Below, piece after piece: positions 40,311-44,023 of a DNA stretch of 64,000 nucleotides (position 1 is the first letter of the stretch; every line of letters starts with the position of its first letter). The DNA comes from Anaerolineales bacterium (GTDB lineage Bacteria > Chloroflexota > Anaerolineae > Anaerolineales > UBA11579). The stretch is taken from the NCBI GenBank assembly GCA_019637805.1, contig JAHBVB010000001.1, forward strand, positions 969,875 through 1,033,874. The letters run 5' to 3'. The position numbers and the translations under genes were made by a program. The notes beneath the pieces are model-generated. The model was not told the origin of the DNA. It did no database searches and saw only the letters and a list, made by a program, of their open reading frames with translations.

Positions 40311-40602
40311 CCTTGCAGTGGAGAATCGTAAGCGATGCTCAGCAGCGCTAAATTCTCCGACGCGGCGCTTGCGCCGCAAAATTGCCATCGTTTCATACGA
40401 TGTTTGCCCCACCCAAGGCCGCAAGTGATTTATTCATTAAACAGATTGTACTCTTGGCCGCAAAGTATTAATTATTATCATGACGCGAGGGTCTCTTGGC
40501 TTGACAGCCAGCCTGATAAGCTTGGAATCCCAGCAAACTGAAGCCAGTATAGCGGTTAACCCGCCGCGGGTTGTTGTTCGCCTGCCGGCGTCAACCGACA
40601 GC

Positions 40603-41340
40603 TTATACGGGTGGCCACGGTACGCTGCGCTGGTCCTCCGGTTGGGCGGGATAGTGCCCGGCGGCCAACAGGGCCGCCCGCCGAGCCTCCAGTGCGGCGA
40701 TCTCCTCCTGGCTGAGGTAAGGCGCCAAAGCGGCGCTCAGCGGCCCGTCAGGCGCCAGCTGCGGCCCCAGGCGCGCCAGCCCCGCGCTGACCTCGGCCGG
40801 GAACGGCTCGCCGGCAAAGACCCAGATTACGGTGCGCAGTTTGGGTTCGGTGTGGAAGCTGATGCCGTGGTCGATCAGCCAGAGTTTGCCGGCCGGGTCC
40901 AGCAGGATATGACCGCCTTTGCGGTCGGCATTGTTGATCAGCAGGTCAAAAGCCGCCGTGGGACGCAACTGCTGGCGCACGGCGTCGTCAAAAGTGAAGT
41001 AGTGCTGTTCGGGGTCATGAGGGATGTGCAGCTGCAGGGAGCCGGGACCGAGCGGGCCATCGTCTCGAAAGACGGTGGGCGGCACCAAGCCCCAGCCCAG
41101 CGCCTGGCTGACCAGCCAGGCGGCCACTTCGCGGCCGGCCAGGCTGTCTTCGGGGAAGTCCCACAGCGGCCGTTCGCCGCGCTGCGGCTTGTAGACCGCT
41201 TCCAGCGGGGCGCCGCCGGGTTGCGTCACTTCCACCAGGAATGTGTAGTTGCTGCCCCAAGTGAACTGGCCGGTGATGGAGAATTCGCCGCTTTGGAGGA
41301 TGGCGATGGGTGTGACTCGGGCACTAAGTCGCTTGCTCAA
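40603..41340 (-). CDS. SCO1664-family protein (PI3/PI4-kinase-like fold)
   Basis: 'GSNYTFLV', 'VYKPQRGERPLWDFP', 'LINNADRKGGHILLD' and 'WLIDHGISFH' (kinase catalytic- and DFG-like loops). Confidence 0.82.
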   Translation of the reverse strand: MSKRLSARVTPIAILQSGEFSITGQFTWGSNYTFLVEVTQPGGAPLEAVYKPQRGERPLWDFPEDSLAGREVAAWLVSQALGWGLVPPTVFRDDGPLGPGSLQLHIPHDPEQHYFTFDDAVRQQLRPTAAFDLLINNADRKGGHILLDPAGKLWLIDHGISFHTEPKLRTVIWVFAGEPFPAEVSAGLARLGPQLAPDGPLSAALAPYLSQEEIAALEARRAALLAAGHYPAQPEDQRSVPWPPV

Positions 41341-41380
41341 TTGGTTACTCCCAATTGACCAAGCACCGGCTGACCCGTTG

Positions 41381-41408
41381 ACTAATACTCATGCCCATTT
41401 TTGCGGGG
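41381..41408. repeat. Direct repeat, left copy (relic of the DUF3090 3' end)
   Basis: actaatactcATGCCCATTTTTGCGGGg. The 17-nt core is identical to 42871-42887. Confidence 0.8.
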
Positions 41409-41423
41409 CGCAACCGACGCGGC

Positions 41424-42752
41424 TCACTCCCTAGGCCAGACTACGTGGACCCCCTCTATGGTGGGCACATAAAAGTAAGCCGCGTCAGGAAGGGGATATT
41501 CATAGAGTACCTCTGCGGTGGCCAGGTCCACCACCAACGCACTAGCCACTCTGAAAGTCCATCCATATTCATCCGTGCCAGCGAGACGAAAGCCCACAAA
41601 GCTGCTCCCATCCGGGCTGACCGCCATGGGTATCACGTCCGGGAGCGTATTGGCCTGCTCGCCTTCCACTACCGTAAATGGCATTTCACCCGAGGGGTTC
41701 CAGGCGGAGTAATAACGATTTAGCAAGTCACCATCGCTGAATGAACCGGAGCGCTCTTCTACAAAAAGCAGATAGTCTCCGCGGTCCTGCAGCGGAAACA
41801 ACTTCAGCACCTCTATGTTGTACTCCCGCCAGTCTTCCCGTTCCGTATCGAAGGTGGCTACATAGGCAAGCAACTCTACTTTATCAAAATCGTAGAGCTG
41901 ATAATAATATTGCACTGGGCTTTCTTGGCGGGAGATGTAATCGTGCACCATGCCCAGTTGCGGGAGTATGCAGATCTCACACCGATATGAGTCTGGGGTC
42001 AGGCCACTATGCTTAATCAAATCAGAACGCGTTTGGGCGTTTGGCATCGGCCAGACCGTATGCTGGCCGGTGCTGGAATCATAGGAGATGCGCGGGACCC
42101 CATCTGCATCGCGGATATAGCTCACAATGTCATCCCCGGTAGACCAGATGACGGGCGCAATTTGACCAGCAGAATATGCGCTCGTAAATTGATCAATATA
42201 GGTAAGCTGGTCCGTTTGCAGACTGTACAGCCACAGGGAATCACTACTGTGGTAGTTGAGTACACCCAAACTCAGCCATTGTTGGCTGGGCGCCCAAGCC
42301 ACATGAAGGAGGTCAGCCTCCTCGGCTATGATCCCGGAGAGATCAATCACCCGGCTTTCGCCGCTATCCAGGTCATACACGGTGCCGGGGCCTTTACTGG
42401 GGGAGCTGAACAGCATGCTGCCGTCGGGAGAAAGAGCCAGTCTCCACGAGCCCTCTATGGGAATGCTGGCTACAAGCTCTTCACTGCCCAATTCGATCAC
42501 GTCGATAAAACCTTCCCCCCTCTCCCCCACCAGCTCCCATCTAGCTACGGCCAGGCGCGGGTTGGGGCCGCTGTAGGGCAGCTGCGTTGGCGTGGGGCTG
42601 GGCTCCACCGTAGGGCTGGCCTCAATTGTGGCGCTGGCTGCGGGCTGGCTGGTAGCGCTGGGCTGGCTGGCTGAGGCATCCGGCTGGCTGGCCGGCGCGG
42701 AGGCACAGGCGGATAAGAGCAGGCTAAGGGTTAGGAGAATGTGTTTTTGCAT
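41424..42752 (-). CDS. Lipoprotein, probable beta-propeller (TolB/WD40-like), on a lower-GC cassette
   Basis: Signal peptide with lipobox 'LLLSACAS', an S/P/A-rich linker, then repeated 'SPDGS'-type blades ('LALSPDGSMLF', 'MAVSPDGSSFV'). Confidence 0.78.
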   Translation of the reverse strand: MQKHILLTLSLLLSACASAPASQPDASASQPSATSQPAASATIEASPTVEPSPTPTQLPYSGPNPRLAVARWELVGERGEGFIDVIELGSEELVASIPIEGSWRLALSPDGSMLFSSPSKGPGTVYDLDSGESRVIDLSGIIAEEADLLHVAWAPSQQWLSLGVLNYHSSDSLWLYSLQTDQLTYIDQFTSAYSAGQIAPVIWSTGDDIVSYIRDADGVPRISYDSSTGQHTVWPMPNAQTRSDLIKHSGLTPDSYRCEICILPQLGMVHDYISRQESPVQYYYQLYDFDKVELLAYVATFDTEREDWREYNIEVLKLFPLQDRGDYLLFVEERSGSFSDGDLLNRYYSAWNPSGEMPFTVVEGEQANTLPDVIPMAVSPDGSSFVGFRLAGTDEYGWTFRVASALVVDLATAEVLYEYPLPDAAYFYVPTIEGVHVVWPRE

Positions 42753-42860
42753 GATGGGATAACGCCCTCCCTATTGTGATGTTACTCCGGTTTCTGATCA
42801 GCGCCGTAGTCAGGAATGTGTCATGCGATGTGCAGGCGCCCCACTCATTCTAATTTACTG

Positions 42861-42888
42861 ATCAATGCTTATGCCCATTTTTGCGGGC
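42861..42888. repeat. Direct repeat, right copy (functional 3' end of the DUF3090 gene)
   Basis: atcaatgcttATGCCCATTTTTGCGGGc. It encodes '...CARKNGHKH*' on the minus strand. Confidence 0.8.
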
Positions 42889-43386
42889 ACAGAAATGGCC
42901 GGCCGGGTCCATCGGTTGGCCGCACTGCGGGCAGATCGGGCGGCCGCGCGAGGCGATCTCGATGCCCCAATTGGCCAGGGCGCGGATCTGCGAGCGTGTG
43001 CACCACAAGCGCGCCAGCCCCAGCTCATCCGGCTCCTGCTGGCCTTCGGGCAGCTCACGCAGTTCCAGGGCTACCAGGTCGCCGTCTGGGTCGTAGCCCA
43101 AACCCAACTGGCCGACGCGGAAGATGGGGTCCACCGGCGGGTGGATGTGCATCTGGTCTTCGTCGTAGTCGGCCGAGGCGTCGGCCAGGTCGGCGTGCTT
43201 GGTGTTGATCTCAGCCAGGAACTGCTCCACGCCGACCGCCAGGCTCTGGATCTGGGTCTTCTCACAGACCAGGGTGATGATGCGGTCGTCCTTCCAGGCC
43301 TGGATGTAAAAGACGCGCTGGCCGGGGGCGCCAATCGCGTCGGTGGTGATGTGGTCTACAGGGCGAAGCTCGATGGGTTTAGGCAT
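42862..43386 (-). CDS. DUF3090 family protein
   Basis: 'GAPGQRVFYIQA' near the N-terminus and C-terminal 'CPQCGQPMDPAGHFCARKNGH'. ATG 43386 is preferred because it starts after the upstream stop; the track start is 43428. Confidence 0.82.
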   Translation of the reverse strand: MPKPIELRPVDHITTDAIGAPGQRVFYIQAWKDDRIITLVCEKTQIQSLAVGVEQFLAEINTKHADLADASADYDEDQMHIHPPVDPIFRVGQLGLGYDPDGDLVALELRELPEGQQEPDELGLARLWCTRSQIRALANWGIEIASRGRPICPQCGQPMDPAGHFCARKNGHKH

Positions 43387-43402
43387 AGAGGTGGATAGTA
43401 TA

Positions 43403-44023
43403 TCAGCCGGGTTTGGCAGCACCGTCACCGGCGCGCCAGTTTAAGTTGAGCAACTGGGCGCCAGCCTCGCCGATGAAGAGCGTACTGACCGAGGCCGTGT
43501 CCACCGAGAGCCGTTGGTACTGGTCCAGCGGCAGGCCGAGGTAGTGGGCAATGATCAGCTTGATCGGGTCGGCATGGCTGACGCAGGCGATGACGTCTTT
43601 GGGGCCGTGGCCGGCGCAGATCGCTTCGATCTGGTTAGCCAGGCGCAGCTGCTGCTCGGGGATGCTTTCACCGCCAGGGAAGCGGAAACGCGAAGGCGCC
43701 TGCTGCAAGACCTTCCAGGACTTCTCGCGGCGCATGTCCTTGAGCAGGCGACCCTGCCACTCACCCAGGTCGGTTTCCTGCAGGTCACGGCGGATGTGCA
43801 CTTTGAGGCCGTGGGCCTTGGCCAGCGGTGCAGCCGTCTCACGGGCGCGCTCCAGCGGGCTGCTGTACACCGCCGCCAGCGACGGCTTGGCCAGCGCGCC
43901 GGCCAGCGCGGCGGCCTGAGCCCCCCCGCGGGCGTTGAGATGCACGCCCGGCAGCCGCCCGGCGGCGCGCCCGGTTTTGACGAAGTCGTTTTCGCCGTGG
44001 CGAATCAATAGGACAAGCGGCAT
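43403..44023 (-). CDS. Histidine phosphatase family protein (MSMEG_4193-type putative phosphomutase)
   Basis: Internal ATG at 44023 gives 'MPLVLLIRHGEN' (RHG motif). The upstream 117 codons of the track ORF are out-of-frame overlap with rarA. 'VSHADPIK' supplies the second His. Confidence 0.85.
   Translation of the reverse strand: MPLVLLIRHGENDFVKTGRAAGRLPGVHLNARGGAQAAALAGALAKPSLAAVYSSPLERARETAAPLAKAHGLKVHIRRDLQETDLGEWQGRLLKDMRREKSWKVLQQAPSRFRFPGGESIPEQQLRLANQIEAICAGHGPKDVIACVSHADPIKLIIAHYLGLPLDQYQRLSVDTASVSTLFIGEAGAQLLNLNWRAGDGAAKPG

Follow-up and report, generated by a model that had tools for sequence, protein, structure and literature searches.

When a direct repeat brackets a single gene and restores the end of the gene beside it, the question arises whether the bracketed gene is a mobile element or whether the repeat has another origin. 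We addressed this question at a locus of an Anaerolineales bacterium where a lipoprotein gene, here called LIPO, lies between the genes for a DUF3090 protein and a SCO1664-family protein, and where the 3' end of DUF3090 occurs on both sides of it. All coordinates are those of the window, the whole 64,000-nucleotide (nt) stretch of contig JAHBVB010000001.1 that was analyzed. The genome, referred to as G000, is a 2.34-Mb metagenome-assembled genome (MAG); the contig bearing the locus is 1.16 Mb long, and the G000 junction is labelled WIN. Our reading, to which we assign a probability of about 75%, is that the left repeat copy is an inert recombination or replication scar, a pseudo-3' end of DUF3090, tied to the placement of LIPO in this slot.

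An inserted gene flanked by a duplicated gene end

A repeat search returned a 29-nt direct repeat (family D2) at positions 41379-41407 and 42859-42887, with 86% identity (25/29) and a spacing of 1480. Its exact 17-mer core, ATGCCCATTTTTGCGGG, occupies 41391-41407 in the left copy and 42871-42887 in the right copy. The first-pass annotation of this DNA had described a gene-flanking repeat of 28 nt, with an identical 17-nt core and about 22 of 28 matching positions, and these measurements bear it out. When up to 2 mismatches were allowed, the 17-mer was matched twice in the window, compared to 0.04 matches expected from shuffles, and the whole 2.34-Mb genome held 2 matches only; the proposed search for other copies of the 17-mer and of the cassette returned nothing beyond the two 17-mers and the one cassette. 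A local alignment of the two G000 junction regions scored 38, while the highest of 300 shuffles scored 27.

Read on the minus strand, the right copy (42859-42891) consists of the last 9 codons of DUF3090, the TGA stop and 3 nt past the stop. It runs TGT GCC CGC AAA AAT GGG CAT AAG CAT TGA, encoding C A R K N G H K H stop, and forms the 3' end of the live DUF3090 open reading frame (ORF; 42862-43428). The left copy (41379-41412, minus strand) is a non-coding pseudo-3' end of the same gene. It reads TGC GCC C CGC AAA AAT GGG CAT GAG TAT TAG TCA, in which R K N G H E Y and a stop stand in the same register and one extra C follows TGCGCC relative to the live end. Counting this indel, the homology extends over about 32 to 34 nt (41379-41412 versus 42859-42891), with 6 differences. 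The C terminus concerned, HFC[APV][RK]KNGHK[HQY], is kept across 30 loci. The annotation had taken the two copies for the last codons and stop of DUF3090 and for a non-coding relic with a 1-nt insertion; both descriptions hold, the latter copy being a decayed in-register duplicate, and the spurious plus-strand ORFs starting with MPIFAG or MLMPIFAG that it had mentioned are present in the ORF list. With 6 differences over 34 aligned sites and an identical run of 17 nt, the pair fits one uniformly aged duplication (P = 0.064, run-length test). A post-hoc Fisher split had hinted at a far more recent origin of the 17-mer than of the remaining repeat, an idea that was dropped in view of this fairer test.

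In G000, the genes between 37960 and 45446 are without exception encoded on the minus strand, in the order histidine phosphatase, DUF3090 (TIGR03847), LIPO, SCO1664-family protein (TIGR03843) and LPG_synthase_TM protein. The only gene between the repeats, as previously annotated, is LIPO (41424-42752, minus strand, 442 amino acids), a single ORF in the same orientation as its neighbors that was characterized from the ORF list, a Pfam search, homologs and a structure model. We searched DUF3090 in 41 related genomes and mapped its neighbors. The three trio genes, for the phosphatase, DUF3090 and SCO1664, are adjacent in relatives: DUF3090 was directly followed by SCO1664 at 16 same-genus loci and at 8 of 9 loci from other families, with estimated gaps of -16 to about 290 nt, and at the ninth (G028) a gap of about 700 nt holds palindromic repeats and a small membrane ORF. 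LIPO occupied the slot only in G000, G020, G008 and G002 and in two metagenome contigs from the Joint Genome Institute (JGI), L045 and L046. A metagenome scan with the protein yielded nothing, and a scan with DNA patterns yielded one contig, L046, whose junction is the same as that of L045 and of the repeat-less type seen in G002. Because most relatives have an uninterrupted DUF3090-SCO1664 junction with a single DUF3090 end, which is what the first-pass annotation had suggested looking for, LIPO is a true insertion into the conserved trio. Trees of the flanking genes divided the genus into three clades: clade A (G000, G020 and G008), in which all slots are occupied by LIPO; clade B (8 genomes), with LIPO in the slot of G002 only; and clade C (10 genomes), with neither LIPO in the slot nor any LIPO homolog.

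The repeat itself is private to G000. Alignments of junction 1 with junction 2, the spacers on either side of LIPO, scored 17 to 19 in G020, G008 and G002, below the null 95th percentile of 21 and compared to 38 in G000, so that none of the three other carrier genomes has a repeat above chance. A short flanking repeat in G008 (AGTAATATCATTAG versus AGTAAAAACATTAG, 12/14) was likewise attributed to chance, its score of 18 lying under the same percentile. In G000, junction 1 is the 109-nt DUF3090-LIPO spacer (42753-42861, minus strand), which was compared with the other cassette copies and whose last 45 nt or so (GGAGTAACATCAC..GGGAGG..ATG) are conserved with them. Junction 2, the 83-nt LIPO-SCO1664 spacer (41341-41423, minus strand), was delineated by sequence reading and junction alignment; it runs from GTGAGC through a filler, CGCGTCGG, the left repeat copy and a native-looking spacer, TCAACGGGTCAGCC..., to a Shine-Dalgarno sequence, GGGAG (41348-41352), and a TTG start. 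Neither the repeat nor the filler nor the spacer was found anywhere else in the G000 genome. The block conserved among the cassette copies starts some 45 nt before the ATG (GGAGTAACATCAC...GGGAGG) and extends to GTGAGC past the stop; it does not end at the repeats.

Comparison of junction 2 across the carriers placed the left copy in context. WIN reads GTGAGC-CGCGTCGG-TTGCGCCCCGCAAAAATGGGCATGAGT-ATTAG-TCAACGGGTCAGCC... and G008 reads GTGAGC-AGTAAAAAC-ATTAG-TCAATGGGTCAACC...; G020 is as G008, minus the next 49 nt, and in G002 and L045 the sequence GTGAGCAG is joined straight to SCO1664 N-terminal coding sequence. These forms make up a nested deletion series, with WIN the longest, followed by G008, G020 and G002/L045. 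WIN equals the G020/G008 junction with a 32-nt insertion and a 6-nt deletion, and there are zero substitutions in the remaining bases. The left copy is absent at the matching junction of G020, G008, G002, L045 and L046, save for a short relic of 9 nt (Lys-His-stop), AAACATTAG followed by TCA, which G020 and G008 carry where the alignment places the left copy. The stop of each of the three clade-A relics is TAG, as it is in the live DUF3090 genes of the sister clade B, and every live DUF3090 end adjoining LIPO ends in TGA, which fits a displaced native end. SCO1664 starts with a GTG that overlaps the LIPO stop in G020, G002 and L045, with a TTG further downstream in G008, and with a weak TTG in G000. 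Shared ancestry of the AGYAA for GTGAGCAGCAA of G002 and L045 was also considered; a microhomology deletion explains it better.

Exchange of the locus through conserved flanking genes

The single LIPO carrier of clade B allowed us to follow a transfer. At 35 of the 38 informative sites between -523 and -57, the DUF3090 gene of G002 is of clade-B type; between -26 and the stop, it is of clade-A type at 5 of 5 sites. Its SCO1664 gene is mostly of A-type over the first 110 nt or so, mixed to about nt 290 and of B-type from about nt 364. G002 has hence imported the DUF3090 tail, LIPO and the SCO1664 head from a clade-A-like donor by homologous recombination, with breakpoints at -57 to -26 in DUF3090 and at about nt 110-360 in SCO1664. 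Homologous recombination via the conserved genes on either side carries LIPO from one lineage to another.

The locus is also of mosaic ancestry. At fourfold sites, the upstream flanking genes differ by 13-15% between G000 and G020 and by 28-35% between either of them and G008 (28-33% for G000-G008), and LIPO differs by 16-19% in all three clade-A pairs (18% for G000-G008), with site patterns along the gene backing all three topologies in turn. The fourfold divergence of SCO1664 between G000 and G020 is 12% in codons 1-80 (4/34 sites) and 33% afterwards; SCO1664 from about codon 80, together with the following spacer, is a separate recombination tract. In junction 1 of G000, the first 65 nt or so match G002 and are largely unalignable to the sister genome G020. 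A side observation concerns positions 40530-41100 of the window, which cover SCO1664 from about codon 80 and the spacer after it: there, identity to G020 falls to 66-82%, with gaps.

LIPO shows the features of a flexible gene: it is present or absent among close relatives, its flanks are conserved, and recombination breakpoints fall within the genes next to it. The same slot holds other cargo elsewhere. In G011 of clade C it contains a gene for a 397-amino-acid major facilitator superfamily (MFS) transporter (PF07690, 5e-52; L036 3137-4327, minus strand of the locus), at whose junctions no gene-end relic was seen by eye. In G004, G013 and G022 it contains repeats resembling miniature inverted-repeat transposable elements (MITEs), which belong to a dispersed family (seen at L007, L008 and L011) with the core TGTCATTCCGAGCGG ... 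CAGCGAGGAATC. With at most 1 mismatch, this family has 87 copies in G022, 25 in G004, 14 in G013, 9 in G008, 7 in G000 and 4 in G020, compared to 0-1 for the reversed control. The locus is thus of a known kind, a flexible, recombination-exchanged islet with a scar in a conserved operon, and is newly documented here. Like flexible genomic islets, it combines conserved flanks with varied cargo (LIPO, the MFS transporter and the MITE-like repeats), a mosaic signal and a fast-evolving secreted lipoprotein; unlike them, it has its slot inside a tightly conserved three-gene operon and not between operons or by a tRNA gene. A conserved operon of an uncultured Chloroflexota lineage hence tolerates accessory genes, and its slot takes different cargo in different lineages. 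DUF3090 and SCO1664, which are 1.5-2.9 kb apart in the carriers, need neither adjacency nor translational coupling.

Origin of the left repeat copy

In the explanation that we favor, LIPO would be an accessory gene without machinery of its own that came to occupy a permissive slot of the conserved operon, and the left copy would be a scar of this placement. As to how the scar was formed, we give about even odds to displacement, the left copy being the native DUF3090 end pushed distal to LIPO. The incoming DNA would have borne its own DUF3090 tail (...CAT TGA), and a crossover within or just 5' of the 17-mer, through Campbell-type integration of a circle of about 1.48 kb or through a one-sided illegitimate join, would have shifted the native tail (...CAT TAG and the native spacer) distal to LIPO, where it would then decay. 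The native empty slot would have ended in ...CAT TAG TCAACGGGTCA. The relic would still measure about 32 nt in G000, whereas trimming would have left only AAACATTAG of it in G020 and G008, and G002 and L045 would have lost it by deletion. Displacement fits the contrast between TAG and TGA, the in-register stop, the short relic that G008 and G020 have in common and the nested series of deletions. It also fits the 18% divergence of the two copies (6/34), a value similar to that of neutral sites within clade A.

In natural gene transfer, homology-facilitated illegitimate recombination and integration of the Campbell type at short homologies are known from Acinetobacter, Pseudomonas stutzeri and Streptococcus pneumoniae. 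The locus resembles homology-facilitated illegitimate recombination in its anchor within a conserved flanking gene, its junction of short identity or microhomology, and its small duplications or deletions with filler (CGCGTCGG); it differs in that the mechanism is deduced here from the scar alone. The first-pass annotation had named a product of illegitimate recombination as its fallback, which is the class to which our own reading belongs.

Several points weigh against this account. A Campbell-type or one-sided illegitimate event via about 20 nt of identity is rare, and no intermediate was seen. Among the genomes searched, none of clade A has an empty slot from which the native end and spacer could be read directly; the likeness of the post-relic spacer to clade-C empty-site spacers is only marginal (best match G005, P of about 0.03 before correction for 10 tests). 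In the species tree, G000 has G020 as its sister, yet the short junction is common to G020 and G008. Finally, the 26-nt difference between WIN and G020/G008 is not polarizable, in that local trees conflict and outgroups are without the region. Three further arguments were abandoned. Species-tree parsimony, which would call the left copy derived, was given up because the site patterns along LIPO conflict with one another. Import of the relic with a divergent SCO1664 allele by one-sided illegitimate recombination fails because the divergent tract starts at about codon 80, and codons 1-80 beside the relic are vertical. A duplication forced by overlapping genes is not supported: where SCO1664 begins in clade B is uncertain, and in G017 an in-frame stop interrupts the putative overlap.

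Unless the junction was itself exchanged by recombination, the short G020/G008 junction favors a second way of forming the scar, which we hold only tentatively, namely a private templated patch. Here, only the short relic would be old, and the live gene end would have served as template for the part of about 23 nt that includes the 17-mer, through a template switch or a short ectopic conversion next to a quasi-palindrome. The repeat search located such a structure, a 13-bp inverted repeat (I15, 12/13) across the LIPO stop (41416-41486; arms 41416-41428 and 41474-41486). It is completed by the filler CGCGTC beside the left repeat copy, which lengthens a 7-bp quasi-palindrome to 13 bp, a template-switch signature in keeping with the patch, and the palindrome is shorter in G020 and G008. 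The CGCGTC extension and the adjacent 23 nt or so, which match a same-strand sequence 1.48 kb off, are reminiscent of template-switch or quasi-palindrome mutations and of the templated insertions that arise in replication or repair. However, an old duplication explains the in-register stop and the shared relic more simply, and one genome cannot demonstrate such a mutation.

Integrative elements and prophages that use tyrosine recombinases insert at the 3' end of tRNA, tmRNA or protein genes and carry a replacement end. Much of what we observed has this classic geometry: an insertion at a 3' end, direct repeats with an identical 17-nt core, a target left intact by an in-register surrogate end at the proximal copy, a displaced distal end, and unoccupied attB-like sites in relatives (16 same-genus and 9 other-family loci with a single DUF3090 end, a spacer and SCO1664). 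In addition, the A-type tract in G002 starts at -26, the 5' edge of the 17-mer, and the live ends adjoining LIPO carry TGA where the relics carry TAG. The first-pass annotation had accordingly likened the locus to site-specific integrative elements. The repeats would then be attL and attR of a minimal or decayed cassette that targets the DUF3090 3' end and brings a replacement end, its integrase having been lost or acting in trans.

We consider this improbable, and comparison does not support the analogy. The repeat is significant in G000 only and is missing in the three other carrier genomes, so it does not bound every integrated copy; the conserved block overruns the repeats, and both the 17-mer and the cassette are restricted to a single locus. 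The insert is one 1.3-kb cellular gene, and no recombinase lies within or beside it, its sole ORF being without a Pfam or NCBIfam family. The nearest PF00589 genes, at C1:921784 and C1:1132656, are about 89 kb and 120 kb away from the cassette (C1:1011253-1012765), in agreement with the earlier remark that the element has no integrase. The movement of LIPO that was observed is homologous recombination of the flanks: the right boundary of the G002 import falls within SCO1664, as expected of homologous and not of site-specific recombination, and DUF3090 positions -57 to -27 hold no informative sites, the crossover at the 17-mer not being resolved. Moreover, the LIPO family is native to the genus and has paralogs elsewhere.

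Signs of other mobile elements were looked for as well. Neither junction has an integron attC-like palindrome, the sole nearby inverted repeat being I15 (13 bp, 45-nt loop), and LIPO does not qualify as an integron cassette, since its neighbors form an operon, with no cassette array, and no integrase is near. A transposon, insertion sequence (IS) or MITE is likewise not indicated: no inverted repeat pairs the insert ends, the insert is single copy, and the duplication measures 29-34 nt versus an expected 2-14 bp. A whole-genome search for the Y1 transposase family PF01797 (E <= 0.001) returned nothing in the window; its single match lay on contig C2. A direct repeat that regenerates a gene end is, as a warning for similar loci, no proof of an integrative element, and duplicated gene ends remain as decaying scars.

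We also considered a lineage-specific insertion mechanism because two unrelated inserts in the same operon, LIPO and the insert of G022, show duplicated gene ends. In G022 (L011), a MITE-like insert lies some 90-430 nt past the end of DUF3090 in gene-strand orientation. It has on either side an imperfect direct repeat of 43 nt (36/43), a duplicate of the 5' coding end of SCO1664, and the relic and the live SCO1664 end of this genome are each other's best match among 13 genomes. An unrecognised mechanism or trans-acting enzyme that duplicates 30-45 nt of a target gene terminus in this genus seems to us a slim prospect; if true, the target duplication would be a very long one, and it would restore the end of the gene.

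That the left copy is kept for a function is more doubtful still. It could provide a mini-ORF that couples translation or, at the RNA or DNA level, a signal for the expression of SCO1664 in the split operon. A mini-ORF of 17 codons, ATG GGC ATG ... TAA, does end 4 nt before the weak TTG start of SCO1664, which also has the GGGAG Shine-Dalgarno sequence at 41348-41352. However, no Shine-Dalgarno sequence precedes the ATG of the mini-ORF, the segment is missing in G020, G008, G002 and L045, and the empty-site spacers, of -16 (an overlap estimate) to about 290 nt, have no element in common. Promoter, terminator and Rfam searches on the gene strand gave no match at either junction.

Least probable of all is a chance match or a mixed-strain metagenome assembly artefact, for although an exact 17-mer pair is estimated at about 0.1 per 64-kb window, the genome is a MAG and the locus shows mosaic signals, the copies lie at both ends of a known insertion with register and stop kept over 32-34 nt of homology, their score of 38 exceeds all 300 shuffles, two genomes that were assembled independently carry a homologous short relic in this place, and the contig is 1.16 Mb long.

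The lipoprotein family and its neighbors

The first-pass annotation had identified LIPO as a lipoprotein with a beta-propeller. The N terminus, MQKHILLTLSLLLSAC, has a lipoprotein signal with the lipobox LLSAC, and Cys16 and Leu13 are invariant among 17 LIPO homologs. LIPO is therefore a predicted bacterial lipoprotein by its match to the lipobox pattern L-[AS]-[GA]-C and its invariant Cys. The signal is followed by a disordered Ala/Ser/Pro linker of about 45 amino acids and then by a putative beta-propeller body. The AlphaFold model is all-beta, with a predicted local distance difference test score (pLDDT) of 75 and a predicted template modeling score (pTM) of 0.76, and in Foldseek it retrieved many WD40/TolB-type propellers at template modeling (TM) scores of 0.4-0.5 and 10-15% identity. 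LIPO matched no family in Pfam or NCBIfam, and no Pfam repeat was matched either. The lipoprotein part of the annotation is hence backed by the lipobox and the invariant Cys, while the propeller part is supported at fold level only, where the modeled body resembles a WD40/TolB-type propeller.

The lower GC content that had been noted for the cassette was confirmed by computation. At 0.564, the GC content of LIPO is at the 9th percentile of about 1350 long ORFs in G000, and its third-position GC content (GC3) of 0.637 is at the 12th percentile, its neighbors having GC3 values of 0.81-0.86. As a sign of import, however, it does not stand: all members of the LIPO family have a GC content of about 0.57 and a GC3 of 0.62-0.67, and paralogs elsewhere in the genome or in other genomes are no exception. 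Because the whole family has the same composition everywhere, the low GC is a family trait and not a mark of recent import. The family comprises 19 clusters among 5.8 billion proteins, and all named ones come from Anaerolineales MAGs; as paralogs at other loci attest, it is native to the genus. Within clade A, the nonsynonymous divergence (dN) of LIPO is 0.07-0.11 compared to 0.002-0.07 for DUF3090. LIPO is thus a genus-restricted, fast-evolving surface lipoprotein, and its family may be of ecological interest.

A conserved motif, GAGTAACATCAC, is found upstream of LIPO. At all loci, L037-L042 among them, LIPO-family genes have a motif in common some 30-40 nt before the ATG (GAGTAACATC, CTGTAATATC and AAGTAATAGC; 42753-42800 in the window). 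The shared motif may be a -10-like promoter element that travels with the gene; a consensus promoter scan did not call it.

The flanking genes belong to uncharacterised families. The DUF3090 gene upstream (42862-43428, minus strand; PF11290, 1.7e-45) scored 149.8 bits against TIGR03847 (cut-off 117), and the SCO1664-family gene downstream (40603-41340, minus strand), with its vertical codons 1-80 and recombinant remainder, was assigned by NCBIfam to TIGR03843 with 266.8 bits (cut-off 172). The first gene of the trio (43403-44011, minus strand) encodes an MSMEG_4193-like histidine phosphatase with a His_Phos_1 domain; its best-matching NCBIfam model is TIGR03848, although its 183.5 bits are under the cut-off of 203.85. 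Our literature search on DUF3090 and SCO1664 returned incidental mentions only, and the present data are of relevance to this uncharacterised TIGR03847/TIGR03843/TIGR03848 trio.

LIPO copy number varies. In G002 (L035, 2161-4926), two tandem LIPO copies occupy the slot, 57% and 68% identical to the G000 protein. By eye, their upstream and signal-peptide regions are near-identical. The pair suggests a tandem duplication followed by partial homogenization. In G000, a 2.9-kb contig (C4, L043) carries at 1640-1869 just the last 60 codons or so of an other-locus LIPO paralog, with internal stops; the sequence on the downstream side of this remnant matches that of the locus where G015 and G006 have an intact paralog. 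A second LIPO copy in G000 seems to have been lost or broken, or else C4 is a strain variant.

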